Of a stretch of DNA of 64,000 bases, positions 16,792 through 57,026 are shown one piece after another. How positions within the stretch are numbered: the first letter of the stretch is position 1; each line of letters begins with the position of its first letter. The notes under the pieces were generated by a model. The model saw only the letters and a program-made list of their open reading frames with translations. It was not told the origin of the DNA and did not search any database. Source of the stretch: an uncultured virus (IMG/VR IMGVR_UViG_3300037400_003073) (Duplodnaviria > Heunggongvirae > Uroviricota > Caudoviricetes); IMG/VR virus record IMGVR_UViG_3300037400_003073; one strand, written 5' to 3'. A program made the position numbers and the translations under genes.

Positions 16792-16794
16792 GTA

Positions 16795-16867
16795 TTGCAA
16801 CAGCGGGGCTCGAACCCGCAGCCTCGTCCTTCGGAGGGACGCGCTCTATCCATTGAGCTATGCCACA
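16795..16867 (-). tRNA. tRNA-Arg(CCG), CCA not encoded
   Basis: Cloverleaf: TGTGGCA/TGTTGCA acceptor, GCTC/GAGC D-stem, CGTCC-CTCCGAA-GGACG, GCGGG-TTCGAGC-CCCGC. Confidence 0.9.
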
Positions 16868-16927
16868 AGGGTCGCGTGGTTCGCAAGTCGAGGATACCAC
16901 TCACACCACTTGCGCCCCCGCGTTGTT

Positions 16928-17169: not shown

Positions 17170-19908
17170 CTATGATGCCTTGAATACTTCGGGCCAGTCG
17201 GGTTTAACGATTCCATTTGGGCCCAGTTCGCCCACGTCCTTCATGTCCGCCCAGGTAGCGCCGACCGGTGACATTTCCGCCTCGATCACGAGCGGGACGC
17301 AAATCCAGGGGAACGCACGCGAGACGCGCTCCACGCCGTTCTGATATACGATGGCGGCGACCTGGTTTTCTTCACCTTCGCGGACAAGGGCAATAATGGC
17401 GTCGTGAATCTGTCCAATTATGCAGGACTGCATCCCCCGTTCCTTAGCCAGCTCGTTTATGCGCTGGACATCCCACGAGAGAGCTCGGAGCAGAATGTGG
17501 AATGCCGACCCCTGGATGCACCGGTTGGTCGCTTCGGTGTAGCCCATAGGACCACGGCACCGGAACCCCGTGTAGCTTTCGACGTACCCGAACGTTTGGT
17601 ACCGGTCCCATTCCTTTTTGCGCCATTGGTTATACACTTTAAAGCGTTGGTTCCAAAAGATGTCGTCGGCCTTTTCGACGTGGGCCTCCCATTTCTTGAA
17701 GGTATTGATGCCGCAATCTTTCGCCAGGTGTTCCTTCGTGTATGGCGGCATGTTCGCCCACATGCGGGTGGCGCATGACTTGTAGTTCGCACCATAGAAC
17801 GAGGCGAACACGTACCCGGACTTGATGGAGGAGCGTTCTTCCTTCGTCAGTATATCGGGGGTCCTTATGTACATATCGCAGGCCGTGTCGCGGTGCATGT
17901 CCGATTCCGGGTTCTGTAGGTAGTGTATCATTTGCGGGTCGTGGTGATAGCTCGCGGACACCATGACTTCCAGGCTCTTGTAGTCCATTTCCATGTAGCG
18001 GAACCCCGGCGGCGCGACGAACAGGTTCCGCAACATTTTTTTAACTTGCTTGTCACGCTTCGGGATGTTTTGAAAGTTCGGGCTGTCAGCGCTCGATCTG
18101 TAGGTACGCGGTCCCGCCTGGCTCTTTTCTCCAGTCGTGGTGCCGCTCTCGGAACCCGTCGAGAGGTTGAAGAAAGTACGGATGAGGTGGCAGCCCTTTT
18201 CCTCGTCCCAAACGGCCTCGCGCTGGTAGGATTCCAGGAACGTGTCGCGGATTTTCGCCCAGTGTCTCATTTCGAGCACATCCCGACACAACTGGGTCCC
18301 CAGTTTGGTGAGCGTGTCTTCCTTCACGTCTTGGGATTCCGCGGGCGGTTTCAGCTTGCACACGTCATAAAGAACCTCGCAGAGCTGCTTGTTTGAATTT
18401 GGATTGAAGTCCTCACCGGGGTGTTTCTGTTGCCATTTCTTGACATCGGGGGATGCCATTATCTTTGCGACCGCGGCGCCGAGCTTGACCCGCAGTTCTT
18501 CCTTGAGTTGCCTGGCCTTCTCAAGATCAATCGGGAGTCCTTCGGACTGGACGCGGGCCAGCGTATCCATACCTTCCATAAAGAACCGGAAGGCGCCCTC
18601 CATGCCAGAAAGTTGCCGCACCTGGGCGTCACGAATAAATAGCGTATAGAGTGAATCCTCCGAGCAATAATAGACCACATCGCCGCGCGGGATTCCCTCC
18701 CCGGAGTGTAAAAGGTTAAATGCGTTGCACCCGTACTTTTCCGCCTCTCCCTGGACCAGGGTGCGGATGTACTTGTCCGCCTTCGTGTCGTACCCCAGGA
18801 CCCCGAGTTCGCAATACGTGTGGAGCTTGAGCCCCACCTTTTGGTTGTTGTCGATAACATGGGCCGCCAGGCAAGTGTCCCAGCTCCAGTTGGTAGGCCA
18901 GTCGGTTCTCCCGTTCCCGATACCTCCGCGGAACCTGGTCCAGCACGCTTCGAAACTGGCATTGTGCGCCACGATCCCGATGCGGGGATGGTGTGTCAGT
19001 TCGTGCCATGCCTTCACAAGCCGTGGGTGGTTTCCGTCCCAAAGGAACCCGAACGCGTGATACTTGCCGTCCATGCGGTAAGCGACGGACGCAGCGTATA
19101 TGCGGTGCCCTTCTCTGTGAGGCTTGAGCCCGGTTGTCTCGTAGTCGATAGCCACGTCGACGACGCCGTCGGGGGCTGCCCCGAGAGCATTTACGGCGGC
19201 CCAGTACATGACGTCCTCGATCCATTCGGCGGCAACGTCGGGGTCTTCCGTCACCCGTATATCGTCGGGTATTTCGGGAAGCGGCTTGTCCTTCAATGCC
19301 CAGGCGTTGCGGACGTGCTGGGCTAGATACATGGCGGGGCAACTGTCCCGGCGTTGCCACGATATAAACTCGGGAGAATACGTCGGGCAAATCCAGGCGT
19401 TGTACTTCCGGTCGGGGATGCGTTTTCCGAAAAGGTCGCTCGGTTGGGTGTTCTTGATTCTACCCGCAAGCCGGTCCCAAATAAGGGCCTTCGTAGGTAT
19501 TACCCCCATTGGTATGATAACACGGGGCTGCAGCTCCCGGATTAGGCGGTCCAGGCGTTCGGAACAGCACGCGGGGTTTTTCGGTTCCTTACCTTCGGGA
19601 ACCGGGCACGGAAGGGCGTACCCTACCCAGGCATGGTCGAGGATACGCTTCGGTACGCCGCGGCACCCGGCCTGGTCGAACAGCACGTCGTAGAGTTCCA
19701 GCGAAAATACGTGGGCGGCGTCGTTCCCCTCGCCCCGTCTCGGGTAGTCGGAGAGGATCAAGACACGGTCCGCCCCCTTGCCCGCGAACCCCGACAACTT
19801 GCCGCTGCCGTCAAGTCCACAGGCCTTGCAACCTGTTGGCGGCGCCGCCCGTTTTGTTCGCGTCTTGTTGGCAAGCAGCATTTCCTGGCTAATATCGAAA
19901 AACCCCAT
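17170..19908 (-). CDS. polA: Family A DNA polymerase with N-terminal UDG-like domain and 3'-5' exonuclease
   Basis: IDYETTG, AHNASFE, PNFQNIP, MDYKSLE, RSSIKSGYVFASFYG, QIHDA; N-terminal CxxC...LQPRVIIPMG...PTYSP. Confidence 0.92.
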   Translation of the reverse strand: MGFFDISQEMLLANKTRTKRAAPPTGCKACGLDGSGKLSGFAGKGADRVLILSDYPRRGEGNDAAHVFSLELYDVLFDQAGCRGVPKRILDHAWVGYALPCPVPEGKEPKNPACCSERLDRLIRELQPRVIIPMGVIPTKALIWDRLAGRIKNTQPSDLFGKRIPDRKYNAWICPTYSPEFISWQRRDSCPAMYLAQHVRNAWALKDKPLPEIPDDIRVTEDPDVAAEWIEDVMYWAAVNALGAAPDGVVDVAIDYETTGLKPHREGHRIYAASVAYRMDGKYHAFGFLWDGNHPRLVKAWHELTHHPRIGIVAHNASFEACWTRFRGGIGNGRTDWPTNWSWDTCLAAHVIDNNQKVGLKLHTYCELGVLGYDTKADKYIRTLVQGEAEKYGCNAFNLLHSGEGIPRGDVVYYCSEDSLYTLFIRDAQVRQLSGMEGAFRFFMEGMDTLARVQSEGLPIDLEKARQLKEELRVKLGAAVAKIMASPDVKKWQQKHPGEDFNPNSNKQLCEVLYDVCKLKPPAESQDVKEDTLTKLGTQLCRDVLEMRHWAKIRDTFLESYQREAVWDEEKGCHLIRTFFNLSTGSESGTTTGEKSQAGPRTYRSSADSPNFQNIPKRDKQVKKMLRNLFVAPPGFRYMEMDYKSLEVMVSASYHHDPQMIHYLQNPESDMHRDTACDMYIRTPDILTKEERSSIKSGYVFASFYGANYKSCATRMWANMPPYTKEHLAKDCGINTFKKWEAHVEKADDIFWNQRFKVYNQWRKKEWDRYQTFGYVESYTGFRCRGPMGYTEATNRCIQGSAFHILLRALSWDVQRINELAKERGMQSCIIGQIHDAIIALVREGEENQVAAIVYQNGVERVSRAFPWICVPLVIEAEMSPVGATWADMKDVGELGPNGIVKPDWPEVFKAS

Positions 19909-22002: not shown

Positions 22003-23454
22003 TCATCGGCGGGTGCGACGCCTCCCGGTGTATTTCGGTTGGTTTTCTTCGGCGGAATACGAGACCTCGCCCATATCGACACAGGATAGGCGTGCACATT
22101 CCAGGTAGGGGCGCCCGATCGCCAGGCAGTTCGTACACACCACCTCGTCAAATATAACACCGCCGTCGCGGGTAGTAGAGCACGAGATTCGGTATATGCC
22201 CCGCGCCTTTTCCTGTTCGGTTTGGTTGATCGCGACCAGTTTCGTCACGTGCGCGACTTTGCGGCGGTCTTCGGACACGTTCTTGGCGGATGCGTCCTTT
22301 TCGCCGTCCATCGTCTCGGTACCTGTATGCGACGCCGTGACGACCAGGCATCCCAGTTCAAGGCCCAGGCCTCTCAATGCTTGCCAGGTCATGTTTATCT
22401 GATGGCGGACCTCCACGCGGGAGTTCCCGTGGTCCATGATGTCCGCGGAATCTACAACCACGACGTCCGGAACAAAATTCTCGTATGTGCCCATTGTCGT
22501 GATTTCGGAGCGCAAGCCGCGGACGGACAAGGTGCCGGTAGGGAATGCCCGGAGCTCAAGGCGACCATGCCTTGACACACGGCGAACGCTCTCCTGGATA
22601 GCTTCGATGCCCTCGAAGGAAGTTTCCACCCGTTCTGTCTTTACTTCGCGGTCAAGGATAGACCAACGGCCCTCCCCGGTTTCCTCAAGTACAGGCCACG
22701 GAGCGCTTTCCCCGTAACGGGAGCACCCGTTTATCATTTGCCAAAAACGGCGCACCATCTGTTTCTTCGTCATTTCGAGAGACACGAAAAGCACGCGCTT
22801 TCCCTTGAGTGCGGCGGCAAACGCGGTGGCCATGAGCCACCAGGTCTTGCCGCGTTTCGGAGGCGCTATGTAAGCTATAAAGTCGTCCGTGGTGAACGGG
22901 CCCAATACGTGCCCCAGTTCTCCGGGGAATTGGAATTCGATCTCCTCCGTGTCGTCGAAGGCTTGCGCGATTTGTCTTGCGTCGCTAAAGATGGATACGG
23001 ACTCCTTGACCCGGACGTTCGGGCGCTGGAACTCCGCGACGGCAAGGAACCCCGCGGACGTGTCATGGTTGGAGAGAGCCCGACCTATGCGTTCATGGAG
23101 CATGGCCAGCGCCCGTTCCTGGAAATATTCGACCGCCATGTCTTCCGCCTGCTTGTCATTCGTCGGGAGCCATTCATCCGAACAGGTCTCGAGAAACACC
23201 GCGACAAGTTCCGCGTCGGATTCCCGCAGCTCGCGTTTACGGCGCATGTAAATATCCTTTATCGCTTTTCCCGGGGCGTCGCCGGTCCGGTCGAAAAATT
23301 CCCACACCCAGGTAGCGACGGCGCGGCTCATGGTGCTTTCGAACATGGCGGGGTCCCCCACTGTCCGTATCTTGGATAGCAGCGGGGTGGACATTATAAG
23401 GTTTGAGAGCACGCGGCGCTCGATGGACAAGTCTATTTTTTCACGTGTAATCAT
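22003..23454 (-). CDS. DnaB-like replicative helicase
   Basis: APPKRGKT, VSLEM, VVVDSAD, VTASH. Confidence 0.85.
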   Translation of the reverse strand: MITREKIDLSIERRVLSNLIMSTPLLSKIRTVGDPAMFESTMSRAVATWVWEFFDRTGDAPGKAIKDIYMRRKRELRESDAELVAVFLETCSDEWLPTNDKQAEDMAVEYFQERALAMLHERIGRALSNHDTSAGFLAVAEFQRPNVRVKESVSIFSDARQIAQAFDDTEEIEFQFPGELGHVLGPFTTDDFIAYIAPPKRGKTWWLMATAFAAALKGKRVLFVSLEMTKKQMVRRFWQMINGCSRYGESAPWPVLEETGEGRWSILDREVKTERVETSFEGIEAIQESVRRVSRHGRLELRAFPTGTLSVRGLRSEITTMGTYENFVPDVVVVDSADIMDHGNSRVEVRHQINMTWQALRGLGLELGCLVVTASHTGTETMDGEKDASAKNVSEDRRKVAHVTKLVAINQTEQEKARGIYRISCSTTRDGGVIFDEVVCTNCLAIGRPYLECARLSCVDMGEVSYSAEENQPKYTGRRRTRR

Positions 23455-25628
23455 TTAAAATCCCTTGTATGAATGACGACACCGCGACGTTCGAGAAGTT
23501 CGCTCAACAGGTCCACGTCGGCGGCTTCCTTGCCGTCAAGGACTCCGTCGAGCATCTTTGCGCGGTCGTCCAGCACTTCCACGGCGTCCATATCCACGGT
23601 ACCCGGCGCCACCAGGTAATACGAGGTCACCGAGCTCTTTTGCCCGGACCGGTGCAAACGATCCTCCGCCTGTCGGTGTGCGTTCGGAGTGTGCGAAAAT
23701 TCAGCGAACGCCACATCGGAACAGACATCCTGGAACCCGTCGATGCCGACTCCGCCGGACTGGATGTTCGCCACCATTACGCGGCAGTCCACGTCTTCGA
23801 TAAACCGCCTGCGGGCATCCTCGCGTTCCGCCTGGTTCATTCCACCGTATATTTTCGCGGGATGGAAATCCCGGAGCGTCGAGAAAAGCAAATCGACCAC
23901 ATCGCGATGCCATGCAAAAAGGAGCAGCTTTCGACCGGAGTCCAGGAAGTCACGGACCCACTGGAGCAGGTTCTTTTCCTTGAGGGCATAGGCGGTACGC
24001 AAGAGACCCGCGACACGTTCCCGCATTTCCTTTTCGCTAGTGCCGTCCTGGGTGAAGGCGACGGCTTCCGCCATCTTGTAGTCCTGGAACGCCTTCGCGT
24101 CAACTTCGAGGGGGACGACCTCCATGACCTTGCGCGGGAGGTCCGTCATGACTTCGGCCTTTGTTCGTCGCAACATGCACCCGACAAACAGGGCGTGGAG
24201 TTCCTTCACGTTCGAGGCTCCGTTGAAAGTGAGCGAGAACCCGTTGTGCTTCGGTGCGCAATACCGGTACAGGTAGGAACGCTGGCTCTTGAATCTCTCG
24301 GGGTCCATTATGTTTAGAAGCGGCCAAAACTGGGCGGGCTTGCTCATGGCGGGCGTTCCGCTCATGCCTATCACGTCGGGAATTTTACGGGCCAGGCGCA
24401 TGAAGGCCCGGGAACGTTGCGAGCTAGGGTTTCCGATGGCTTGAACCTCGTCGCCTATTAGCAGCTTGAAGCCCAGGCCGGTCAATTCTTCCTCCCAGTC
24501 GCTCAAGATGTCCCAGTTGATAATGTAGGACACACCGGGCTCGAGCATGTAGGGCGTCTTGCCCTGGAGCACGGCGACGCGTGGCTTGTAGCCAGGGACG
24601 GACCCGACCCAGCGGTAATACGCGGACTGCCATTGGAGCTTTGTCGGGGCGTTCACGACGATAAGGGCGGGGAACCTGTTCGCGTAAACGAGCCACGACA
24701 AGGCCTCGACCGTCTTTCCGCAATTATGGACGACGACCCCGTCCGCCAGGAAGTTCGCATGGTTCAGCACCTTTACGTCGTAGGTGTGGCGTGTGCCTAC
24801 CCGTTCAATAGATACAGGGCGTACCGCCTTGGGTGTGTTCGTGGAGTTAATATTGCATACTACAGCACTGCCGCCTAAACGTTCCGCCGGAACCCAACCA
24901 CAGGATTCTGTGAGAACCTGGTGGTCGGGGGTGCATACCAACGTGCGCCCATCCTCGAACGTGACGCGGACGCATTCCCGTTCCCCGCTGTCGATCACGT
25001 CCACGACCTCCCCGAGCCTAAATACGCCGTCCTGGTGGATGCAGCGTATGAACCACGGGCGTTCTTGCAAGGTGTAAAGTTTGCGCGGGTCGTCGCTGTG
25101 GAACTTGCGGAAGAACGCCGCTAGGGTCATTCTCTTGGCGGCGCCGTGCCGGTTTACCTGTACCATGGCTTCACCGTCGATGCATCCCATTTCGTCGCCC
25201 AGGGCTACGCGCCCGCGCCGGATCGTCGCGAACTTGAGGAAGTCCAACTGGTACGAACGCAGGCCCGGTATCATGGGGGCGGTAGGGTCGAGCTGAACCG
25301 CGGCGATGCGCTTTCGCTGTTCTTCAACGGGGTCCACTTCGGGTACTTTTTCCGCCGAGGGCGGTTGGGCTTCGTACTTCCTGGGAGCAGGGAACCCCGC
25401 AACCTGGAGCCATTCGAGCATTTCAGCGCTCGCGGGGACCTCCCAGCGCTTGGTTGCCGCGTTGTACTTGCGGCGGGGCAGATTTCGGACCGCAGTGAGA
25501 ACTTTCTGCCAGTCCGCGCTCTCGTGTGCCACCCAGGCTATCGAAATCGTCTTGCCGCTTTCTTTGTATTCCGCGGAATACCGGACGCCAGGGACGGGCG
25601 AAAATGGTTGTAATTTTTGCGTAAACAT
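23451..25628 (-). CDS. SNF2/HARP-like helicase containing an intein
   Basis: LRSYQ, DEMG|CGKT, DEVQ, SGTP, LRRTK, QAEDRLHRSGQ. Confidence 0.9.
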   Translation of the reverse strand: MFTQKLQPFSPVPGVRYSAEYKESGKTISIAWVAHESADWQKVLTAVRNLPRRKYNAATKRWEVPASAEMLEWLQVAGFPAPRKYEAQPPSAEKVPEVDPVEEQRKRIAAVQLDPTAPMIPGLRSYQLDFLKFATIRRGRVALGDEMGCIDGEAMVQVNRHGAAKRMTLAAFFRKFHSDDPRKLYTLQERPWFIRCIHQDGVFRLGEVVDVIDSGERECVRVTFEDGRTLVCTPDHQVLTESCGWVPAERLGGSAVVCNINSTNTPKAVRPVSIERVGTRHTYDVKVLNHANFLADGVVVHNCGKTVEALSWLVYANRFPALIVVNAPTKLQWQSAYYRWVGSVPGYKPRVAVLQGKTPYMLEPGVSYIINWDILSDWEEELTGLGFKLLIGDEVQAIGNPSSQRSRAFMRLARKIPDVIGMSGTPAMSKPAQFWPLLNIMDPERFKSQRSYLYRYCAPKHNGFSLTFNGASNVKELHALFVGCMLRRTKAEVMTDLPRKVMEVVPLEVDAKAFQDYKMAEAVAFTQDGTSEKEMRERVAGLLRTAYALKEKNLLQWVRDFLDSGRKLLLFAWHRDVVDLLFSTLRDFHPAKIYGGMNQAEREDARRRFIEDVDCRVMVANIQSGGVGIDGFQDVCSDVAFAEFSHTPNAHRQAEDRLHRSGQKSSVTSYYLVAPGTVDMDAVEVLDDRAKMLDGVLDGKEAADVDLLSELLERRGVVIHTRDFK
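24723..25184 (-). mobile_element. Mini-intein (154 aa) in Walker A of the helicase
   Basis: C1 (CIDGE), block B CTPDH, block F TYDV, terminal VVHN followed by +1 Cys; no LAGLIDADG domain. Confidence 0.92.
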
Positions 25629-26648
25629 TTAGACACTAATCCCGTGGACATTTTTGGCCCAGCGTTTAAAATTGTTCCAGCGCTCCGTATTGGAACGGAC
25701 CCACCGCAATGGGTGCACCTCGAATTTCACGGCGTCCTTCCAGTCGCAAATGAGACGCAACAGGTCCCAGGAATTAGCCAGCCTGGATCGGTTTACCAAA
25801 TCCTGCATTAGTTCACCGCGGTGGTTGTTGTACCACTGGACAACCTGTGCAGCACCGGACCACATTGCGACAAGGGCGTCGCCCATGTAGTCGGTTTTTC
25901 GAACTTCGCGGTCGACAAGTTCGCGAGCCTGTGGTGGCAAAGTTTCCCGGTAGCCCATCCAGGTCATGTGCCAAAAGTACACCTCGATGAACGGCGATGT
26001 TTCGGACCCTTCGCGGGAACCGGAGACCAGGAACTCGAGCAGGGACTTTCGGACCCCGTCCTTGGGCCACCAAAATGTGCCGGTGCCTTCCCATCGGAGC
26101 TGGATGTAGTCGAGCGTTTTGGCGATGGCGTCGAGAACGGGCACCCCCTGGGAGAAACACAAGAATCGCGGCGAAGCTCCGTGGCTATAGAGCCGGGACA
26201 TCCAGGCGGCGTTCCAGTTGTGGAGCGAACCGAAGGTACCGTCGGCCAGTCGGGCTATTTCGCGGCAGGTCTTGTGCCACACCCCGCTGTCGGGTTTGGT
26301 ACGGGTCAAGATGTCCTGGTGGTTGTCTATGATCTCGCGGAGCCGCGTTTGCTGTTCCTGTGTAAGCATTCCCGCAAATTCCGAGAAGGGTTCTATCCCG
26401 AACCCTTCCGTTTGCGTTTTTGGCGCTTCCTGGGCTCGGTTTTTCTTCGGGGGTGTCTTTGCCTTGACCGTCACGTTTTCGGGAGCCACGCGAACGGGAA
26501 ACGCAGCGGCGATGTCGTCCTGTACTTTCTCGCGTATCTCGATACGGTCACGGCTTACGCGTACCGCTTCGAGCGAGGGGTAGTCCTTGCCGAGTTTCTC
26601 GTTTATGTCGTCGATTAGCTGTTGCGGTATCGTGAGGATTCCGACCAT
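25629..26648 (-). CDS. Hypothetical protein
   Basis: Start MVGILT coupled to upstream stop. Confidence 0.6.
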   Translation of the reverse strand: MVGILTIPQQLIDDINEKLGKDYPSLEAVRVSRDRIEIREKVQDDIAAAFPVRVAPENVTVKAKTPPKKNRAQEAPKTQTEGFGIEPFSEFAGMLTQEQQTRLREIIDNHQDILTRTKPDSGVWHKTCREIARLADGTFGSLHNWNAAWMSRLYSHGASPRFLCFSQGVPVLDAIAKTLDYIQLRWEGTGTFWWPKDGVRKSLLEFLVSGSREGSETSPFIEVYFWHMTWMGYRETLPPQARELVDREVRKTDYMGDALVAMWSGAAQVVQWYNNHRGELMQDLVNRSRLANSWDLLRLICDWKDAVKFEVHPLRWVRSNTERWNNFKRWAKNVHGISV

Positions 26649-27031
26649 TACAGATGCCTCCGTTTCCATTTCTCCAGGGTTTCCCGGTCTTCGGATTCCC
26701 GCGTGGGACACACGGAGTCGAAAATCTTGAACCACCCGCGGGTTCCAAGGGTATCCGTGTCTACCATGCTGTCGTTGACCGGCGGGAACGCGTCGCCCCG
26801 GTACGTCGGGTCGAACCACTTCGGGTTCGGCTTCCAGTTCCGATGCTTCATTTCCCGGAGTATGCGGGAGTGATACCAAACAACCACGCCCCAGGGAAGC
26901 CCGTATATCCACGGGTGCTTGCCGTCATAAGGACGCCACGGACCGGATCGGACGCGGCACATGTCGCGATGCAGCGCGCAAAGGAGCCTGCCGGGCAAGT
27001 CTTCCAGGATTTCTGGTCGCCAAAATTTCAT
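26648..27031 (-). CDS. TIGR02328-like (pyrimidine-dimer glycosylase-related) protein
   Basis: MKFWRPEILEDLPGRLLCALHRD...W...H resembles the family's MRLWH..L..LP.QQLLGQHRE pattern. Confidence 0.55.
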   Translation of the reverse strand: MKFWRPEILEDLPGRLLCALHRDMCRVRSGPWRPYDGKHPWIYGLPWGVVVWYHSRILREMKHRNWKPNPKWFDPTYRGDAFPPVNDSMVDTDTLGTRGWFKIFDSVCPTRESEDRETLEKWKRRHL

Positions 27032-27054
27032 TTTTACCTCGTCTGTTCCCCGGA

Positions 27055-27141
27055 TATTTACGCATACGACCGGTACGTTGCCGGAAATAAACAAAATTTT
27101 ACACGCCACGGGCCCCGAAGTACCGGCGGTGTTGCTATATT
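27055..27141. promoter_or_regulatory. Back-to-back ACCGG-N9 promoters (27055-27074 minus; 27122-27141 plus)
   Basis: accggtcgtatgcgtaaata and accggcggtgttgctatatt. Confidence 0.65.
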
Positions 27142-27147
27142 GGGGAA

Positions 27148-27765
27148 TAACCGGCGTCCCAAAGCAAGCGGACACCGGAGCACCCGGACCGGTAGATGGT
27201 AGCCCGGCAAGACGGTGCAAGGCGGAACCATTTCACAGCCCGCCGAACAGGGGCCCAGGAGCCCGGATGTAGAGCATACCGGTAGAGCCCCGCGCAAGGA
27301 TCGACGTCCGAGCGTGCATATAGTTGGGCTAGCTTGATTAGCACCGGAGGTGGCCTATCTTCAAACAGAGGGCGTCGCCCATACAGCCCCGGCATTGCGA
27401 CCGGGGTGGTCAGCGCAATAGATAGCAAAAGGTGGCAAGCCCGGTGCCGCGTGTGAAGACGCACGTCAGCCGGGAGCAGCATGGGCCTTCACCAGGTCGA
27501 GTCTTGCGACCAGTGGGAACACACGGCGCCCATATCCCGCCAAATGCCCGCGAGGGCAGTAGTGTGGCGCATAGCAGTCCCCCCGACCGGTTGACCTGGG
27601 GGGTTGGGAGCAATCCCAGTAAGCGCCGCTCCGGTCTAGTGCCGGTATAAAAGCAGAAAAAGTCGTACGCCGATGTCTAGTGCTTCGAACTACTCCCTTC
27701 CCTGGGGGTAGTTTGGCTCTTGTCCCCACCTCCGTCTAGGTGCTGCTATCGCAGCAATAGCTAGG
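27148..27765 (+). ncRNA. Candidate large (~600 nt) structured RNA
   Basis: Begins right after a promoter motif; no credible ORF; GNRA hairpins TGCCC-GCGA-GGGCA and TGGGA-GCAA-TCCCA plus many other stems. Confidence 0.55.
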
Positions 27766-27847
27766 TAGGAATAGGTGTATAACGCGCGTGTGTGCGCGCA
27801 CGTACGCGTATGCGCGCGTAAGGGAGGATTCCATCCAGGAGCAAAAA

Positions 27848-28074
27848 TGCCATTGAGGCCAATTTACATCCCCGACGGGTTCCACCGCGGCTCCGTCACG
27901 TTCCGCGCTTCCTGGGAATACTTCGACGAGCCGTGCGAACCCCCGCCTCCGCCCGACTACATCCCGTCGGGCCCTTTTTCGACTCCGGGAGTGGTGGGAC
28001 GCCCAGGCGGAGTTCTACGGGTGCCCGGTTCCCCCGTTTCCTGGGTGATCCTTCGGGACCGGCCCGCGTTTTGA
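27848..28074 (+). CDS. Small proline-rich hypothetical protein
   Basis: AGGAG RBS before MPLRPIYIP; C-terminus uncertain. Confidence 0.35.
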
Positions 28075-28181
28075 CGGATTGGGGGCTCCGTGGGCCTGTT
28101 TTCCTCCAGGCGGTGCAACTACACGGTCGGAGAAAACAGGGGCCCGTGGGGGCCCTTTTGGCAAAATTCCGGGATTTTCAC

Positions 28182-29564
28182 AAAAAGCGTGGGCAGGAAG
28201 ATGCCGTCCCTTTAGGGCGGCGTAGGAATGCCCACGAGAACACTTTGGGAACACTTTATTCCAATATTGCACCTAAAATGCTTGATTTGCAATTCGAAAT
28301 GTTCTAAACTTATAATTGAACACGGGTGAAATTCAGATGGCAGAACTGACCTACAATGCAGAGCTACGGTTCCGTACCAAGGAAGACCACGAATACTGGT
28401 CTAGTCTTCTTGCATTGTCCAGGAAAGCCTACAACAAGTGTGCGAACATCCTTGATTCCAACAATGTCCATATAGACTTGCGGTCAGTCCACAAGGCAGT
28501 GTATGATATTCTCCGTGAGGAATATCCAACCATTCCAAGCCAAGCCGTAATCAAGATATACAAGGAGTGCATATCGGCATTCCGTTCCATCAAGAGCAAC
28601 GGCCATAAGAAGCACAAAATACCAGAAAAGCATGGTCTATCAATGAGGCTGGACAAGCGGCTGTATTCTAAGTTCAATCGCAAGAGCATTGCATTGTGCT
28701 CCGGCAAGGCTTGCAAAAGAGCCGTAGCGGATATTGTCGGTTATGACAGGCTGGAGTCGCTGTTTGTGCAATATACCACAGCCGACCCGTTGATTTTCAT
28801 GCGAAATGGGCGTTTCTTCCTTTCGATAACATTCAATGTTCCCGATGTACCTCTATATGATGACAACTGCATCGGATTGGATATGGGCGAACGCCGTTTC
28901 GCAATTTCCTCCGATGGAATCATGTTCCACGACAAGGAATACAACAAGCGTAGACGCAAACTACGCTACTTGAAGCGTTGCTTGCAAAAGAAAGGAACTA
29001 AGTCTGCACGTAGGCATTCTCGTAAGCTATCCATCAAGGAACAAAACCAGTCTACCGATATGTGCCGAAAGATTGCCAATGCGGTAATCCAAAGCACGTC
29101 AGCTTCCATTATCGTAATGGAAGATTTAAGCGGAATTAAGCAGAAGACTTCAAAGTCTAAAGAGGGATTCAAACGGAAATCCCATAATCGTAGGATGTGC
29201 CAAATTCCATTCTACAAGTTCAAGCAAATCTTGTCATACAAGACACCGCTGTACGGTAAGACAGTGGAAACAGTTTCTCCGTTCATGACAAGCCAAACTG
29301 ATTGCACCACGGGCAAGAAGGAAGGTACTCGCAAGAATCGTAGATTCTATTGCAAGAACGGTACTGTCCTGGATGCCGACTGGAATGCTGCAATCAACAT
29401 AGCTCGGAAGAGCAAACATCCTTCCTCGTTCAAGATGCCCCTTGATGGCGCATTGAGAACTTGGAAGGCAGGGTGTATGTCAACCACCCAATCGTACATC
29501 AGTCTCCCTGCGGTAACAACGGGAGCCGTACAAGCTCACGCCCTTCAGGGCGTGGGTAGTTGAC
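28182..29564 (+). mobile_element. Non-autonomous IS200/IS605-family element (tnpB only), inserted 3' of TCAC
   Basis: LE: GAAG at +16..19 then hairpin GCCGTCCC-TTTA-GGGCGGC; RE: CAAG, hairpin CTCACGCCC-TTCA-GGGCGTGGG, ends TGAC; composition differs from flanks. Confidence 0.9.
28337..29563 (+). CDS. tnpB: RNA-guided endonuclease TnpB
   Basis: RuvC motifs IGLDMG, VMEDL, DADWNAAINI; TSQTDC; degenerate zinc finger. Confidence 0.92.
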   Translation: MAELTYNAELRFRTKEDHEYWSSLLALSRKAYNKCANILDSNNVHIDLRSVHKAVYDILREEYPTIPSQAVIKIYKECISAFRSIKSNGHKKHKIPEKHGLSMRLDKRLYSKFNRKSIALCSGKACKRAVADIVGYDRLESLFVQYTTADPLIFMRNGRFFLSITFNVPDVPLYDDNCIGLDMGERRFAISSDGIMFHDKEYNKRRRKLRYLKRCLQKKGTKSARRHSRKLSIKEQNQSTDMCRKIANAVIQSTSASIIVMEDLSGIKQKTSKSKEGFKRKSHNRRMCQIPFYKFKQILSYKTPLYGKTVETVSPFMTSQTDCTTGKKEGTRKNRRFYCKNGTVLDADWNAAINIARKSKHPSSFKMPLDGALRTWKAGCMSTTQSYISLPAVTTGAVQAHALQGVGS

Positions 29565-29992
29565 TTCTCGCGGGCCTCCAGCTCGACAATTCTGAACCCT
29601 TCCCGGTACTTGTTTCGCTTCTCGATGCGTTCGCGGGCGGCCTCGAGTTCCTTTTCGGTGGCTTCGCGGCCATAGTAGGGAACGCCCCTGGTGCAACCGA
29701 AGCTGCGGACCGATCCAGTGGCGACCTGTCCTATTTCCGCGTCGTGTTCCTTGAAGAAACGGACGGCCTCGTCGAGCTTGCGTGCCGGGTACAGGTAGAT
29801 TCCGGTGCGGATAGTGTCTTCGGTGTTGAATCTCGGGTAGTGGAAGAACGCCAGGCGCTCGATTTCCTTTTCCGCGAGCTGGAGAGATCCGCAGCAGCTC
29901 ACCGGGCTCTCGCCCGCCATAATCGCGTGCGTGTAGGTGTGTGTCCTGCTTGTGCGTACCAGCTTGTCGGTGCCTTTGATGTAGAACTTCAT
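29480..29992 (-). CDS. Hypothetical early protein; C-terminus extended into the IS
   Basis: Behind class I promoter; native end ...AREK* when the IS is removed. Confidence 0.7.
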   Translation of the reverse strand: MKFYIKGTDKLVRTSRTHTYTHAIMAGESPVSCCGSLQLAEKEIERLAFFHYPRFNTEDTIRTGIYLYPARKLDEAVRFFKEHDAEIGQVATGSVRSFGCTRGVPYYGREATEKELEAARERIEKRNKYREGFRIVELEAREKSTTHALKGVSLYGSRCYRRETDVRLGG

Positions 29993-48793: not shown

Positions 48794-50221
48794 ATGGGAA
48801 CTTATGTAACCGAAAGCGGTCTCAAGAGAAAGACCTTGCAGGAATGCCGCGCCGAAATCGAAAACGCATTAAAGCAGGCTTTTGGGACTTCATTCGAGAC
48901 ATCAGCCGATAGCCCGAACGGACTTTTGATTAGCCAGCTCGCTCTCGGATTCTCGAACGCCTGGGAACTCGCCTTCGAGGTATTCTCAAGCCGTGACCCG
49001 GCGCAAGCCGTAGGCGTCTCGCTTGACTTCGCGGCGGCCCTTAACGGCATTACGAGACAGTCTGCGAGGGCGTGCTCAGTGAACGCAGTCACCTTCACGC
49101 TCGATTCGTCGGCTACTATCCCTCAAGGTGCTACAGCCGTAAGGACACGCGGCAACCTTGACTTTACTCTTGATTCTTCCGTTACCGTAAGCCGTTCGGC
49201 TTGCGAAAAGCTCATGATTGAAGATGACGGAAGCCAGAAGAACACTGACTACGTTTTCCATTTCACTTTTGGCGATGTTACGCTTAACAACTCGACAGAA
49301 CAGAGCAACCTTTACAGGCTCCGACAGCTTATCATTGTAGCAGGAGGAAAGGCCGAATTTTACGGCGGACGGCTCGCCGTATGGGTTGACGGTTCTACCG
49401 TAGGCATAACGGGCCAACTTCCTGACGATTTCAACATCTATGCCGGAAATACAGGCTCGTTTACTGCTGTAACCGAAGGCTTGCAGACTTGCGACATCGG
49501 GGAACTCGATGCCGTTAGTGGCTCCGTTACCGGTTTTGACGCGGTGTATAATTTTGTCGTTGGCGTTCCCGGCCGTGATGCGGAAACTGACGATGAACTT
49601 CGCGTAAGGCGCGCAATCTATGCGCAATCCATCAAGTCCTGCGGTACAGACCCGTCAATCGAGGCGCACCTTCTTAACGATGTTCCTGGCGTAACGGCGG
49701 CATCCGTAACAAGCAACCGCAACATGACAACGGACAACGAGGGGCGACCTCCGAAGAGCTTCGAGGCGCTTGTAGGTGGCGGCGATGATTACGATGTAGC
49801 AATGTGCGTTTGGAAGAACCAGCCGAGCGGAATACAGCCATACGGCAACACGTCCGTAGAAATTGTTGACGAAGATGGCGACAGGCAGATGATCTCGTTT
49901 TCGAGACCATGCGCAAAATATCTTTGGGTGCGCGTAACGTACAGGCTCTATGACGAAGAGACGTTCCCAGGCATAGAAACGCTCAAGGCGGCAATCTTGC
50001 AGTGGGCAGACATCGAATACAACATCGGAAAGGACGTAATTCCAGACCGAATCTATCAAGGCATTTACGGCGTTCCAGGAGTGGGCCAATGCTCGATTGA
50101 GGTCGCATTGACGGAAAATCTGACGGACAGCCCAAACTATGTGACGGACACTATACCAGTTTCAAGCACGGATTACGCCGTTCTTTCTACCGACCGCATA
50201 ACGCTGACGCCGGCAACGTAA
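48794..50221 (+). CDS. Baseplate J-like protein
   Basis: DSPNG, AVGVSLD, GRDAETDDELR.R, VPGV. Confidence 0.88.
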   Translation: MGTYVTESGLKRKTLQECRAEIENALKQAFGTSFETSADSPNGLLISQLALGFSNAWELAFEVFSSRDPAQAVGVSLDFAAALNGITRQSARACSVNAVTFTLDSSATIPQGATAVRTRGNLDFTLDSSVTVSRSACEKLMIEDDGSQKNTDYVFHFTFGDVTLNNSTEQSNLYRLRQLIIVAGGKAEFYGGRLAVWVDGSTVGITGQLPDDFNIYAGNTGSFTAVTEGLQTCDIGELDAVSGSVTGFDAVYNFVVGVPGRDAETDDELRVRRAIYAQSIKSCGTDPSIEAHLLNDVPGVTAASVTSNRNMTTDNEGRPPKSFEALVGGGDDYDVAMCVWKNQPSGIQPYGNTSVEIVDEDGDRQMISFSRPCAKYLWVRVTYRLYDEETFPGIETLKAAILQWADIEYNIGKDVIPDRIYQGIYGVPGVGQCSIEVALTENLTDSPNYVTDTIPVSSTDYAVLSTDRITLTPAT

Positions 50222-50255
50222 ATCGTTGATAATAGTCTTACAGGAGTTTATTGCA

Positions 50256-53243
50256 ATGGAAACGATAGTACCTTACAAGGAAGAGTTCAAGAAGTACATC
50301 CCGGAACAGTACAAGAACAGCGAGAAACTTCTGGCTCTCGTCAATTCCTGCATGTCGCAATTTGACGACCTTGAGACTGCCTTTTTTGAAATTCTGCAAG
50401 CCTTGAACCTTGCCGACGCCATAGGACCCGCATTGGACTACTTGGGCGCAATCGTCGGCGTAAAGCGCAATCCTGGCGAAAGCGACACGCAATACCGCGA
50501 ACGGATCGTAAGCGGTTTGAACCTGTTGAACCTTCCGGGGCCGGAAGCGTTGCGCATGGTTATAAAGTTCCTCACGGGTGTAGATTCAGTCGGCCTTTTT
50601 CCGAACTGGCCCGCAGAAATGTACTACGTTCTTGACGGTGGAACGGACGCGGACTTGTCGAACCTTGAGAAGAACAGCATGACAAGCGGCGCCTCTCTTG
50701 TGCGTGGGACGTTCCTTTGCATGGAATCCGGTGAAGGCGGTTACATCGTGAATGACGATAACGGGATGCCGTTCGTTGTCGATTACGTGGACATTATGGA
50801 CATCCCCGACAACGTTTTACGCTTTACGTTCAGCCTGCCCGATTATGACCCGACCGTTGCAGGCGTTGGAACGCATGGCACATGGACAAAGGTAGAGTCC
50901 AGCAATCAAAACGAATGGGACTGGACCACGGAAGGCGTTAGCACTTCCGGGGAATTTAAGAACGCTTTTCACGATTCCGCAAATCTTGTAAGTGTCCGGT
51001 GTAAAGTCTTTGAAAGTTCGTTAAATGCGTATGAATTATTTTATAATAATTCTTCGCTAATAAATGCCGATTTACAGAATGTCTCGGGAATTTATGGCTC
51101 CGCAATATCATTTTTCGAAGGGTGCACAAATTTAAAAAATATTGTTCTTACGGGTGCGAACAACATAGAAACCACCTCGTACTTCGCAGGATATTGCTCA
51201 AATCTTGAAAGCGTGTATATTGATTCTCTTGAAAATTGCGCGTCTTTAAATGCGGCATTTACAAATTGTACGCAATTAAAAGATGTACGCATTGGGTATA
51301 TTCCGAACGTTACGAATTTATATACAATATTTAGAAATTGCTCAAGCCTTGAAAGCGTGTATCTAGATATTCCAAGTGTTACAACATGCTACCAAGCGTT
51401 TTATGGATGTTCAAAGTTAAAAAACGTTATTCTAAAAAATACGGGTAACGTAGAAAGTTTAAACGGAACATTTAGCCAATGTGTTGCGTTGGAAACGGCT
51501 CCTGATTTAGACACTTCATCGTGTACTAATTTTAACAGCCTATTTTTTAACTGTGAATCTTTGAAGGAAGTTCCGGACTACGAAACTTCAAATGGCACCG
51601 ATTTCAATTCGGCGTTTAAACAGTGCGAAAATCTAGAGTATATAAGAATAGATGTGTCTAGTGCGTTATCTATAGAATCAATGCTCGAAGATTGTACAAG
51701 TTTAATAGATGTAGAATTTATCGGAAATGCTGGAAACGTTGAAAATTTCAAAAAACTTTTCAACGATTGCCGATCTTTAAAGAATATTCCGTTCTTTGAT
51801 ACGTCAAGTGCCGAAAATGTAACTTCAATGTTTAAAGGGTGTATAAATGTAGAATCCGGGGCGGTTGAAATGTATGAGCAGATGAGCGCCTCTGCTAACA
51901 TTTCCGATTATGAAGACTGTTTTACTAATTGCGGCATAAACACCATCCGGGGCATTGGCGACCTTACGAAGATTCCGACAAGTTGGGGTGGCCTCGGTTC
52001 TATCCCGGAAAATTCTCTCTTGTTCAACTTCGGCGACCCGAGCTACAACCCGAATGAAACGACCACAAGCAACCACGGAACTTGGACAAGATATAGCACG
52101 GGATATGCAGATAACATATTTAATCTTTGGCTTTGGATTTATGACGGCAACGAATACGGATGGGCTAAAGAGTTCATGCCAGATATCTTCAGCAGTTATC
52201 TATCCGATTTCGATAATAACCCGGTGGACGTTGTTGCTCACGGCGATTTGACGGACATCAAGTGTTACGCGGACCTTTTCTGTAGGGCGTCCGCATTGCG
52301 CTATTGTTGCGACTTTGTCATCCCGGATGCTTCCGTAAATTTCCCCGGCTATAGTGGTTCGTTACAAGGTATGTTCTCAAGGTGCGACAATCTTGAAGTT
52401 TTCCCGCATATAGACATTTCAAATCTTAGAAGCGGAATCAGTTATCTCGCGGACAGTTGCACCAAACTAACCACGATAAAACCGCCTACTATACGTTCAA
52501 TAGTTGGAGGAAGCATTGCCACGATTAGTGCATTTGAAAATTGCCCGAATGTGGAACGCGGTGCAGCGGAGACATACTCGGTTTTAAAAAACATATCGAA
52601 TTCCGGCAGCCATGACTGCTTTACGAATTGCGGCGTGAATAAATTAACAGGCGTTTCCGACTTGTTCAAGATTCCGACAAGTTGGGGCGGTTTAGGATTG
52701 GTCTCGGAAAAAGCCATTGTCTTTGCGTTCGGTGACGAAAATTACAACCCGTCAACCGCAGGTGTTGGCGCAGGTGGTACATGGACTGAACTTGCCGATA
52801 ACCCGACAGAATTCAATATTTGGACGTGGACGAAATCCGGCAACGACTGGAGCGGCGAACTTGAAAACGCATTTACAGACGAAGTAAACAAGCCGTACAT
52901 ACTCGCGATAGGCTCAACAGGCCTCGTTTCAAATGTTGACAACTTCCTCAATGGAAGCACGTATGTTCGTCACGGCGCGCTCGATATGTATCGCCAAATG
53001 AGCGGACGGGCGACTCCTCCGAGCAACCACGAAAAGACGTTCCACGATTGCGGAAAACTTACGGAGCAGGGGCTTTTCGAACTTTTGCAAATTCCGGTAA
53101 ATTGGGGCGGCGATGTTTTGACATTCTGTATTGAGAACAACCTTGTCGCATACTTGCCGGACGAAAATCAAACGGAAGTTATCGTGCAGAGCATACGTTA
53201 CTATCAAGACGTTTTCCGCATGATGAAGAATAGCGATTTGTAA
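50256..53243 (+). CDS. Baseplate wedge (DUF2612-like) fused to three BspA/DUF285-like LRR modules
   Basis: AIGPALDYLGAIVGVKR..SDTQYR; xFxxCxxL repeats; three IP(T/V)(S/N)WGG caps. Confidence 0.75.
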   Translation: METIVPYKEEFKKYIPEQYKNSEKLLALVNSCMSQFDDLETAFFEILQALNLADAIGPALDYLGAIVGVKRNPGESDTQYRERIVSGLNLLNLPGPEALRMVIKFLTGVDSVGLFPNWPAEMYYVLDGGTDADLSNLEKNSMTSGASLVRGTFLCMESGEGGYIVNDDNGMPFVVDYVDIMDIPDNVLRFTFSLPDYDPTVAGVGTHGTWTKVESSNQNEWDWTTEGVSTSGEFKNAFHDSANLVSVRCKVFESSLNAYELFYNNSSLINADLQNVSGIYGSAISFFEGCTNLKNIVLTGANNIETTSYFAGYCSNLESVYIDSLENCASLNAAFTNCTQLKDVRIGYIPNVTNLYTIFRNCSSLESVYLDIPSVTTCYQAFYGCSKLKNVILKNTGNVESLNGTFSQCVALETAPDLDTSSCTNFNSLFFNCESLKEVPDYETSNGTDFNSAFKQCENLEYIRIDVSSALSIESMLEDCTSLIDVEFIGNAGNVENFKKLFNDCRSLKNIPFFDTSSAENVTSMFKGCINVESGAVEMYEQMSASANISDYEDCFTNCGINTIRGIGDLTKIPTSWGGLGSIPENSLLFNFGDPSYNPNETTTSNHGTWTRYSTGYADNIFNLWLWIYDGNEYGWAKEFMPDIFSSYLSDFDNNPVDVVAHGDLTDIKCYADLFCRASALRYCCDFVIPDASVNFPGYSGSLQGMFSRCDNLEVFPHIDISNLRSGISYLADSCTKLTTIKPPTIRSIVGGSIATISAFENCPNVERGAAETYSVLKNISNSGSHDCFTNCGVNKLTGVSDLFKIPTSWGGLGLVSEKAIVFAFGDENYNPSTAGVGAGGTWTELADNPTEFNIWTWTKSGNDWSGELENAFTDEVNKPYILAIGSTGLVSNVDNFLNGSTYVRHGALDMYRQMSGRATPPSNHEKTFHDCGKLTEQGLFELLQIPVNWGGDVLTFCIENNLVAYLPDENQTEVIVQSIRYYQDVFRMMKNSDL

Positions 53244-53280
53244 CAAAAAAAAAACTTATATTACTACTAGGAGATTTTAT

Positions 53281-54351
53281 ATGCCATACCCGCCGAGACA
53301 AATTCCAGATGCACCGCTCCCAATGTCGATGGCTCCGCAAGCGGAAACACTTACGGGGAACGACATCGTTGTAATCGTCCAGCCGCTGAACGCACCAGGT
53401 CGAAAAACACGTTCCATGACACTTTCTCAACTGGCATCGTTTATTGCTGCCGGTGAACTTGGAGAAATCGTTTTCGTGAACGTGAACGGCTTCCGCTCCA
53501 CGGTCGGAAAGAACGGCTATAGCTATCACCACGATGCAGACCAGTCCTACAACGCGAACCTCGACTACGCGATAGATAGCAACGGAATCCACGCCGTTCT
53601 TGCAATTTCGGGATATTCAAAGCGCTTTGAAGCCAACGGCAACAGCGTGTTATTTTCGAAGACAACAAGCGGGCTTGTGGACAAGGTAGAAATCTTCGAG
53701 AGCTGCATACAGATTTCGCACCAAACCAGGAACGGCGCCAATGTAATCACGCATACAAGCCGCATCGCTTGGGACCACATGAGGACGCCGGAAGTGCGCG
53801 TCATGCAGGACGAAAACAACTACATCCCGATAAAGTGGGACTCCGCAAATAACGAGTTCGTCGTTTGGCAAAGGGCAAATAGCGGGAAGGTGGCAGTTCC
53901 TAAACTCCATGTTTACGGTACGCTAGAAGTCGAAAAAGACACCACAATAAGAGCGGACGTGAACATAACCAAAACAATTACAGTAGCAGATAGAGCGGAC
54001 TTTAATGGAAACTTTACAGTTATAAAGAATTTATACGCAACTGATTACGCGGAAACTTATTGTAGGTTAAAAACGGCAAGACTCAATCTTAAAAATGAAA
54101 AAAGCTATTTTACAGTATCATCAAATACAAATATAAACACTTTAATTGCTGGAGTTTCCGAACAAATTGCAGTTGCCGAGGGTGATATTGTGACTTTAAG
54201 AAATAATAGTAACACGGATATAGAAGTTGTAATGGGTCTTCGCAAAGTTACCTTGAACGCTTTTTGCGCTATGCAATTTATATGTCATGGAACAGATGGG
54301 ACCAATACACAATGGGCACCACTTGGAAACGCCACGGTTACTTTGGCATAG
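53281..54351 (+). CDS. Tail fibre-like protein
   Basis: beta-rich; position after baseplate; AT-rich C-terminal part. Confidence 0.55.
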   Translation: MPYPPRQIPDAPLPMSMAPQAETLTGNDIVVIVQPLNAPGRKTRSMTLSQLASFIAAGELGEIVFVNVNGFRSTVGKNGYSYHHDADQSYNANLDYAIDSNGIHAVLAISGYSKRFEANGNSVLFSKTTSGLVDKVEIFESCIQISHQTRNGANVITHTSRIAWDHMRTPEVRVMQDENNYIPIKWDSANNEFVVWQRANSGKVAVPKLHVYGTLEVEKDTTIRADVNITKTITVADRADFNGNFTVIKNLYATDYAETYCRLKTARLNLKNEKSYFTVSSNTNINTLIAGVSEQIAVAEGDIVTLRNNSNTDIEVVMGLRKVTLNAFCAMQFICHGTDGTNTQWAPLGNATVTLA

Positions 54352-54453
54352 AGAATTTAAAAAAGAAAAACCTAAACGGAGGTTATACAAATGTCGAATA
54401 AAGAAATCCTGCTAGGAAATGCTACGGTAACTTGGTCGTAAAGGAGATAAAAT

Positions 54454-56359: not shown

Positions 56360-56373
56360 TTATTAACTTATTT

Positions 56374-56393
56374 GCAATCCCGTAAGGGATTGC
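56374..56393 (+). other. DGR-type hairpin 3' of the VR
   Basis: GCAATCCC-GTAA-GGGATTGC, 8-bp stem with 4-nt loop. Confidence 0.65.
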
Positions 56394-56403
56394 GGAGCTT
56401 AAT

Positions 56404-56556: not shown

Positions 56557-56685
56557 GTTATATAAAAATATTGAACAAAAACGAAGGATGTGGCTATTTG
56601 TCGAAAAGGCTTTGTCCAAGTTCAAAAATGTATTATATTGGAATAGTGAGAAAAATTCTTTTTCGACAAAGGAACTAAAGCACTC

Positions 56686-57024: not shown

Positions 57025-57026
57025 AA

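Follow-up and report, generated by a model that had tools for sequence, protein, structure and literature searches.

A candidate family of large structured RNAs between the replication and packaging arms of an uncultured phage

The window analyzed here is a stretch of 64,000 nucleotides (nt) of the IMG/VR record IMGVR_UViG_3300037400_003073, from an uncultured, myovirus-like phage of ~62 kb. Replisome and repair genes occupy its minus strand from ~500 to 27031, and terminase, head and tail genes follow on the plus strand from 27847 onward (Table 1). The 815-nt gap between the nearest credible genes (26648-27031 on the minus strand; 27847 onward on the plus strand) separates the leftward and rightward arms and houses the subject of this report, an element of ~611 nt. 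A preliminary description, made from the sequence alone, had proposed that this gap encodes an undescribed large structured phage RNA. We found that the element is conserved above its neighbors, that compensatory base pairs distinguish its homologues and that it matches no Rfam family, all of which support the proposal. The element very probably represents a new family of large, structured RNA and exerts its effect as RNA.

Conservation, fold and strand of the element

Two IMG/VR contigs were 94% identical to the window over 26605-28160, and regional identities were computed against one of them (L006), whose homology to the window stops at 28160. These identities (Table 1) indicate that the element is the best-kept sequence of the region, with a sharp 3' edge. 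The 3' end was set at the point where conservation ceases, and the 5' end was placed from the promoter to within a few bases. The element is ~60% G+C. When folded as a single sequence, the plus strand gave a z-score of -3.24 (0/20 shuffles as good), compared with -0.98 for the minus strand (5/20).

Homologues were sought with motif scans, three of them of IMG/VR (~2.9 million contigs) and one each of JGI metagenome contigs and GTDB species-representative genomes. The raw loci numbered 7, 11 and 16 in IMG/VR, 10 in the metagenome contigs and 9 in the GTDB genomes; after nhmmer filtering of all scans, the homologues were restricted to seven IMG/VR contigs or metagenome copies of the same. An nhmmer search with the window gap against 85 loci around relatives of the large terminase (TerL) revealed the diverged copies in L009, L026 and L027. 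The nhmmer collection, which the preliminary description had named as a check, comprises these seven contigs and, with the window, six distinct sequences. No prophage copy was found among the GTDB species-representative genomes by motif scan and nhmmer. No cultured phage has a TerL more than 35% identical to that of the source phage, and none of 50,697 phage records was matched by 26000-29000 in blastn.

The six distinct sequences fall into three lineages: A (the window and L001), B (L009) and C (L027, L026 and L090). Lineages A and B are 65-67% identical, and C is 49-52% identical to A or B. The element is 611 nt long in the window and ~650-670 nt in the other lineages. The diverged lineages still have exact blocks in common, including blocks of 17-19 nt; the common blocks are GCCUAUCUUCAAACAGAG, UCCCGCCA, AGCAG, UGACCU, GGGAGYAAUCCCRGUA and GGGGGYAGUUUGGCUCYUG. 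When GCCUAUCUUCAAACAGAG was used as a scan pattern, only the family and chance matches were recovered. The sister phages L010 and L011 (TerL 81-83% identical, same neighboring and replication genes) lack both the RNA and the small open reading frame (ORF) that follows it in the window. At the corresponding site they carry a leftward gene of 314-342 aa (L011 7159-8103 and L010 4809-5837, both on the minus strand), the two products being 49% identical and without a Pfam or PHROG family.

RNAalifold, applied to a MAFFT alignment of the six sequences, gave a consensus of 127 pairs in 25 helices. In this consensus 90.1% of the cells were paired, compared with 79.1% in shuffles (0/500 as high), and 46 of the 127 pairs were changed on both sides, compared with 30.4 in shuffles (0/500) and 8-12 when the partners were slid by 1-3 columns. 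The number of further pair types was unexceptional (50/500 shuffles). We also projected the minimum free energy (MFE) structure of the window sequence alone on the other lineages. On L009, 73% was paired, compared with 38-51% after sliding, and there were 23 double changes compared with 8-13. The excess was smaller on lineage C (58% vs 35-45% paired; 20 vs 12-17 double changes). A hand-written structure of the conserved core, scored on a separate alignment (A9), paired 95.1% of the cells, compared with 32-54% after sliding, and contained five pairs with double changes, compared with 0-2. Compensatory base-pair substitutions between homologues, the general mark of a structured non-coding RNA (ncRNA), were thus found. 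With 116 supported pairs imposed as constraints, a pseudoknot-free fold of the window contained 179 pairs, 18 hairpins and four multiloops. In all, more than 20 helices, several of them long-range, are kept in pairing by compensatory changes across the three lineages.

The individual helices (Table 1) illustrate these changes. A hairpin noted at the 5' end in the preliminary description (CCGGCGTCC, 27151-27159, with GGACACCGG, 27170-27178) is present with one C.A mismatch, and a hairpin of different sequence stands at the place of this P1 in every lineage (10 pairs in L009, 9 in L027 and L026, 8 in L090). P2 reads GCAUC / GAUGC in L009, a compensatory C-G to U-A change read by eye from the sequences. 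The counterparts of P3 are GGCGGGG / UCCCGCC in L009 and GCCCGG / CCGGGC in L027 and L026. In P4 (consensus helix 4), a G-C pair of the window lineage is A-U in four of the six sequences, and P4a has other sequences at the same place in L009 and L027. Helix Y was inspected directly because MAFFT misaligns some helices; it has 9 bp in the window and L001, 9 in L009 (shifted, CGAGGUGGG / CCCACCUCG), 8 in L027 and L026, and 7 in L090. Seven of the eight pairs of helix 11 are changed on both sides, and none is broken in the six sequences. The alignment of lineage C is uncertain in the central domain (27387-27511). In the GCGA hairpin the outer pairs are invariant and the inner stem is AAUC / GAUU in L009 and GACU / AGUC in L027. 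The three-way junction is supported by the hand-given core structure on A9. The hairpin at 27688-27713 (consensus helix 24) has 12 pairs, with 94.4% of the cells paired and two pairs doubly changed. Four of the five pairs of the 3'-terminal hairpin are doubly changed (lineage C has GCCUU / AAGGC), and in L009 this hairpin pairs poorly. UCAAAC and GUUUGG, both invariant, could also pair, their invariance giving no covariation signal.

The other stems picked out in the preliminary description were likewise located in the sequence. They are the GNRA-capped TGCCC-GCGA-GGGCA (27545-27558) and TGGGA-GCAA-TCCCA (27605-27618), CCCCGG / CCGGGG (27387-27392 / 27401-27406), CCCC...GGGG (as CCCCC 27580-27584 / GGGGG 27599-27603) and AACTAC...GTAGTT (within 27688-27713). 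Three candidates were discarded. An outer stem guessed by hand, CACC / GUGG around 27490-27516, failed to pair; helix 3 of RNAalifold (27175-27192) is incompatible with P1 and P2 and is disrupted in L009; and CCUCC at 27729-27733, considered as an anti-Shine-Dalgarno sequence, is the 3' strand of helix Y.

Table 1. Features of the element and its surroundings, with regional identities to the close relative L006 (window coordinates)
Feature	Position	Strand	Identity to L006	Remarks
Structured RNA element	27148-27758	+	97.7% (597/611 columns)	~611 nt; from conservation, homologues and covariation
Pyr_excise coding sequence			94.5%	
Left intergenic part with promoter			92.2%	
Hypervariable spacer	27759-27846	+	64.9%	88 nt, 3' of the element; includes ribosome-binding site of small ORF
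Small ORF	27847-28048	+	94.1%	frame broken in the window; 67-76 aa in intact relatives
Stretch up to 28160			92.0%	
Extended -10 TGCTATATT	27133-27141	+		from the sequence; TG 27133-27134, TATATT 27136-27141
Promoter-like site, L009	directly upstream of element	+		TTGACA-17-TATATT, 11/12 matches
Promoter-like site, L027	directly upstream of element	+		TAGAAA-17-TATAAT, 10/12 matches
P1 hairpin CCGGCGUCC / GGACACCGG	27151-27178	+		8/9 pairs
P2 GCACC / GGUGC	27180-27218	+		encloses P2a CCGG 27189-27192 / CCGG 27204-27207
P3 hairpin GGCGG / CCGCC	27221-27244	+		just 5' of conserved CGAAC
P4 GGGGC / GCCCC	27250-27291	+		encloses P4a CCGGAUG 27263-27269 / CAUACCGG 27275-27282
Long-range helix Y, 5' strand CGGAGGUGG	27345-27353	+		pairs with 27726-27734; closes 3' domain
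Invariant 18-nt block GCCUAUCUUCAAACAGAG	27353-27370	+		identical in 6/6 distinct sequences
Long-range helix 11, 5' strand GGGCGUCG	27370-27377	+		pairs with 27524-27531; closes central domain
Central-domain hairpin CCCCGG / CCGGGG	27387-27406	+		other sequences in L009
Central-domain CCCGG / CCGGG	27440-27474	+		encloses CGUGUG / CGCACG 27450-27465; CCCGA / UCGGG in L009
Central-domain hairpin GGUC / GACC	27495-27511	+		
Helix 11, 3' strand CGGCGCCC	27524-27531	+		
Invariant UCCCGCCA, then GCGA-tetraloop hairpin	27535-27564	+		
GCGA hairpin, outer stem CGC / GUG	27538-27540 / 27562-27564	+		
GCGA hairpin, inner stem UGCCC / GGGCA	27545-27558	+		
Three-way junction	27566-27627	+		closing helix GGCGC / GCGCC 27566-27570 / 27623-27627
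Junction arm CCCCC / GGGGG	27580-27603	+		
Junction arm UUGGGA-GCAA-UCCCAG	27604-27619	+		
Hairpin CCGG / CCGG	27631-27645	+		2/5 pairs doubly changed; C-G becomes G-C in 3/6 sequences
Hairpin AACUACUCCC / GGGGGUAGUU	27688-27713	+		overlaps near-invariant GGGGGYAGUUUGGCUCYUG 27704-27722
Helix Y, 3' strand CCACCUCCG	27726-27734	+		direct inspection
3'-terminal hairpin GCUGC-UAUC-GCAGC	27742-27755	+		consensus helix 25
Terminator hairpin GGGGCCC-GUG-GGGGCCC	28139-28159	probably both		A-run before, U-run after; ends cassette
Replication/repair arm	~500-27031	-		primase, exonuclease, SbcCD-like nuclease, UvsX-like recombinase, clamp loader, family-A polymerase, sliding clamp, DnaB-like helicase, SNF2 helicase, T4-endoV-like Pyr_excise protein
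Rightward arm	27847 onward	+		small and large terminase, portal, Mu-F-like protein, protease, major head protein, tail sheath, tape measure, baseplate
X1 and X2 RNA-library contigs	27212-27496			probably one data set
X3 RNA-library contigs	27333-27486			
X4 RNA-library contigs	27341-27517			plus diverged variant 27341-27426

The preliminary description had also assigned the element its own promoter, pointing away from the replication arm. The two parts of its ACCGG-N9-TATATT motif lie at 27122-27126 and 27136-27141, the latter within an extended -10. The -35 region of the window (27114-27119) is weak, and a two-hexamer promoter scan, which does not score an extended -10, scored no site in the window itself. 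Sigma-70-type promoter-like sites were found at the same plus-strand place in all three lineages, which argues for the proposed promoter and its direction. Further, the consensus helices contained 93 G.U cells when read on the plus strand and 23 on the minus strand. Our assignment of the element to the plus strand rests on its promoters, on the G.U bias and on the z-scores of the folds. In lineage B, a terminator-like hairpin with a T-run stands on the minus strand just behind the element (L009 8056-8074), a possible barrier to antisense transcription of the RNA gene.

The junction of the divergent replication and packaging modules is exactly where a DNA element, such as a replication origin, a packaging site or a regulatory region, might be expected, and the element sits there. 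However, the region contained no iteron-like or notable direct repeats and no A+T-rich stretch, the promoter points into the element, and the changes between homologues keep RNA-type pairs, including the G.U pairs biased to one strand. Further, L010 and L011 have a protein gene in its place and retain the same replication genes. We consider a DNA element highly improbable.

The claim that the gap is ORF-free held only loosely. Overlapping the element are ORFs of 115 aa (27135-27482) and 87 aa (27466-27729), both on the minus strand, and one of 72 aa on the plus strand; none has a Pfam match and none is conserved as an ORF in the relatives. An unrecognized or frameshifted protein-coding gene would have to be sought in the minus-strand ORFs, together with a 310-aa minus-strand ORF over the element in L009. 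The L009 ORF was rejected as spurious: it has no Pfam match, its product is 33-35% identical to the window in two frames whereas the DNA is 67% identical, and nothing significant was found for it in lineage C. Substitutions are compensatory in stems rather than concentrated at third codon positions. The check for a frameshifted gene, raised in the preliminary description, therefore ended in rejection, and we give a hidden gene almost no credence.

Comparison with known RNA families

A search of the whole window with Rfam 15 at gathering thresholds returned only tRNA-Arg. When 26900-28000 was searched by cmscan against all 4227 Rfam 15 families at E <= 10, as the preliminary description had suggested, only mir-297, P15 and CC0196, small RNAs without relation to the element, were returned (13-18 bits, chance level). 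GOLLD, OLE, HEARO and raiA, which we take to be among these 4227 families, gave no model match. The preliminary description had seen no hallmarks of RNase P, transfer-messenger RNA (tmRNA) or group I/II introns; the Rfam models and, for tmRNA, ARAGORN found none either.

The closest resemblance is to ROOL. In two reports, ROOL averages 581 nt (PMC5737381) and the env-120 ROOL from cow rumen measures 659 nt (PMC12286853). These reports describe many helices and multistem junctions, a phage or prophage location and a first discovery in cow rumen metagenomes, and give no protein partner or function (PMC5737381, PMC12286853). The element resembles ROOL as described there in size (611 nt, and ~650-670 nt in the other lineages, beside ~580-660 nt), in its many helices and predicted multistem junctions, in being phage-borne and in a cow rumen or bovine-gut source. 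It differs from ROOL in having no model match, in its distance from tRNA genes, which ROOL frequently adjoins (the sole tRNA gene found in the window, tRNA-Arg at 16794-16868, is 10 kb away), in the conserved small ORF on its 3' side, and in its rarity (7 of ~2.9 million IMG/VR contigs). ROOL forms an octameric cage, and multimers of this kind are hypothetical for the element.

It is conceivable that the element is a very divergent member of ROOL, GOLLD, OLE, HEARO or raiA that the Rfam models missed. Its size, similar to the ROOL lengths (PMC5737381, PMC12286853), its phage location and the bovine-gut label of RNA libraries that contain it would agree with this. Several results speak against it in addition to the cmscan result and the distant tRNA gene. 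The ROOL model (RF03087; gathering score 99.1 bits) gave nothing at E <= 10 in four family records, and no score reached the gathering score in these records or in 26900-28000, in a search without a working positive control (no match in the 3 + 41 Bacillota genomes tried as such). Three invariant motifs were absent from the supplements that hold the env-120 sequence and alignment, a weak test with wrapped or gapped sequences. Finally, the element is ~60% G+C, in contrast to the A+T-rich printed start of env-120. We therefore allow a missed known family a very small chance.

GOLLD RNAs are often longer than 800 nt and lie near tRNAs. OLE is a chromosomal RNA of anaerobic Firmicutes, ~600 nt long, and the gene directly adjoining it, oapA, encodes a membrane protein. 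With OLE and OapA, the element shares a large RNA with a small protein gene directly 3' of it; it differs in that its putative partner is an acidic, largely disordered protein with a single predicted helix, and in that no Rfam match was found. OLE is described as a large structured RNA working with proteins and GOLLD as a large ornate phage or prophage RNA whose expression rises during phage lysis (PMC12286853), and ROOL and GOLLD as large ornate phage RNAs that form cages (PMC5737381, PMC12286853). The element shares with GOLLD, so described, the character of a large ornate phage RNA, and differs in having no Rfam match at E <= 10. Its closeness to ROOL, GOLLD and OLE is one of kind, not of sequence or model membership.

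The omega-RNAs (reRNAs) of TnpB from IS200/IS605 elements overlap the 3' end of tnpB. A tnpB gene (28316-29563; Cas12f1-like TNB and OrfB_IS605 domains, PHROG transposase) lies 560 nt downstream of the element, inside a low-G+C stretch of ~1.8 kb. It belongs to an insertion (28161-29989); the 94%-identical relative has 3.5 kb of other genes there instead. The element lies outside this insertion, on its upstream side, and is present in relatives without tnpB at the site. Since tnpB belongs to an insertion absent from the close relative, the element is not its omega-RNA. Contigs of one RNA library (X4) are 88-93% like parts of the insertion and continue into unlike sequence, so related copies of the insertion exist elsewhere.

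The small ORF cassette and the reading of the element

In all three lineages the order is promoter, RNA, variable spacer, small ORF (67-76 aa) and terminator-like hairpin. Within the spacer, 27782-27818 is an alternating purine-pyrimidine tract of overlapping palindromes, of the (CG)n/(TG)n type, that is only partly conserved in close relatives and could form a 15-bp hairpin or Z-DNA-prone DNA. The window copy of the small ORF has a 2-nt deletion near 27984-27987 relative to L004; residues 1-47 are encoded at 27847-27987, and the conserved C-terminal motif of the protein, STPREWW-AQA-FYG-PVPP-PG, lies out of frame at 27986-28045. The ORF is broken in two of the six distinct cassettes (window and L090), in which the RNA keeps all blocks; the breaks may be real decay or assembly errors.

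The small protein was matched by tblastn in all seven family contigs and in no other fetched phage relative at E < 1e-4, and two protein-pattern scans of IMG/VR recovered six of the seven contigs and no other. A profile search against 1.84 billion representatives matched seven proteins, five of them new. The protein has no Pfam or PHROG family, is acidic and is predicted to be mostly disordered, with one helix predicted by AlphaFold at residues 54-65 (mean pLDDT 66).

The hairpin that ends the cassette is listed as a minus-strand terminator-like site at 28155-28140; with the plus-strand reading made from the sequence, it is probably bidirectional. A plus-strand terminator-like site also stands behind the small ORF in L027. 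Leftward ORFs flank the cassette on both sides in lineage C and L006, and it looks like an isolated rightward unit. Read-through into the late or packaging genes, in the manner of lambda pR'/6S or put, is unlikely, as the cassette is separated from TerS by leftward ORFs in L006 and L027.

Ten public runs were listed as holding part of the stretch, and four of them are RNA libraries labeled bovine gut or bovine metagenome. Their contigs, which are unstranded and come from at least three studies, together lie on 27212-27517, the central part of the element (Table 1). No contigs of these four runs lay on 25500-27211 or 27518-28207, a lack that is uninformative in runs picked by this stretch. The contigs show presence in RNA libraries rather than transcription, strand or ends, and are a weak hint of expression.

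The best reading of these data is a family of ~610-670-nt, highly structured ncRNAs in a small group of uncultured phages of ~50-65 kb. In such a scheme, host RNA polymerase would transcribe the element from about 27148. Rather than serving just as a leader for the small ORF, the RNA, once folded, would be the working product, a stable particle acting in trans during infection. By analogy with ROOL, GOLLD and OLE, this particle might associate with itself or carry the co-encoded 67-76-aa protein. Candidate tasks would be those of a scaffold, of a decoy for a host factor or defense, or of a catalyst. We lean towards the view that the product is the folded RNA itself, as a stable particle that acts in trans, perhaps helped by the small protein.

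Several points weigh against this interpretation. The consensus structure was derived from the same alignment in which the changes were counted, and the covariation comes from only six distinct sequences in three lineages, without R-scape-type significance. The RNAalifold covariation term was larger on the minus strand (9.65 vs 5.54), so that covariation alone does not fix the strand; the total energy was weaker there (-94.4 vs -107.2). The RNA-library contigs may derive from DNA, and the runs were selected for containing this stretch. The cassette is not essential to this phage type, since L010 and L011 do without it. The RNA and the small ORF co-occur strictly, the two ORF frameshifts could be assembly errors, and the window showed no terminator-like site separating the RNA from the ORF, so that the RNA is probably made as the 5' part of the ORF transcript.

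An RNA followed by a small conserved ORF and a terminator raises the alternative of a giant cis-acting leader (5' untranslated region), the fold of which would control translation or stability of the message for the 67-76-aa protein. The constant company of RNA and ORF, with no terminator-like site between them in the window and a terminator behind the latter, fits a leader, two of the six distinct ORF copies being broken. However, such a leader would be three times as long as its ORF and better conserved than it (97.7% vs 94.1%), and the 88-nt junction between them is the least conserved part. In the two frameshifted cassettes the RNA is intact, and invariant blocks with more than 20 conserved helices far exceed known leaders. 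A role as leader of the packaging genes is opposed by the leftward ORFs that run before TerS in L006 and L027. We consider the leader unlikely, and prefer the trans-acting RNA.

A bolder form of the trans-acting RNA is offered tentatively, as a possibility that we hold to be doubtful: an unseen class of ornate phage RNA, an RNA machine (a self-assembling multimer or a ribozyme) that would be produced by host RNA polymerase as infection begins and that, aided by a small acidic protein it does not require, would take over or disarm the host. If true, large RNA-only assemblies like ROOL and GOLLD would be a recurrent phage invention and not two isolated curiosities.

To our knowledge, only a handful of bacterial and phage RNAs longer than ~500 nt have conserved complex folds (rRNAs, group II introns, RNase P, OLE, GOLLD, ROOL and HEARO). 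Each of them has unusual biochemistry or is still an open problem, and the element adds an example to the few large ornate ones. As a well-bounded family with its own promoter, invariant blocks and long-range covarying helices, it would be a direct target for cryo-EM, chemical probing and assays of self-cleavage or assembly, and the tiny conserved protein beside it is a testable lead to a partner. Its home phage has its own replisome, and no integrase was found among the 64 window ORFs scanned. Further, rumen viromes still hide large RNA genes that are invisible to family-based annotation.

Other features of the window

Two replication-arm proteins contained domain matches below the cut-off. 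The SNF2-family helicase (23451-25628) has a sub-threshold Intein_splicing match at residues 273-302, just before the SNF2 domain (E 2.6e-07; 31 bits, cut-off 35.8). The family-A DNA polymerase (17170-19908; 912 aa) has a weak match to the uracil-DNA-glycosylase superfamily near its N-terminus (residues 103-188). The G+C content drops from 55-60% to 37-52% over the last 14 kb (50000-64000), which carries baseplate, tail-fiber and later genes, with a minimum of 36.6% at 51001-52000, suggesting a mosaic or recently exchanged host-range region.

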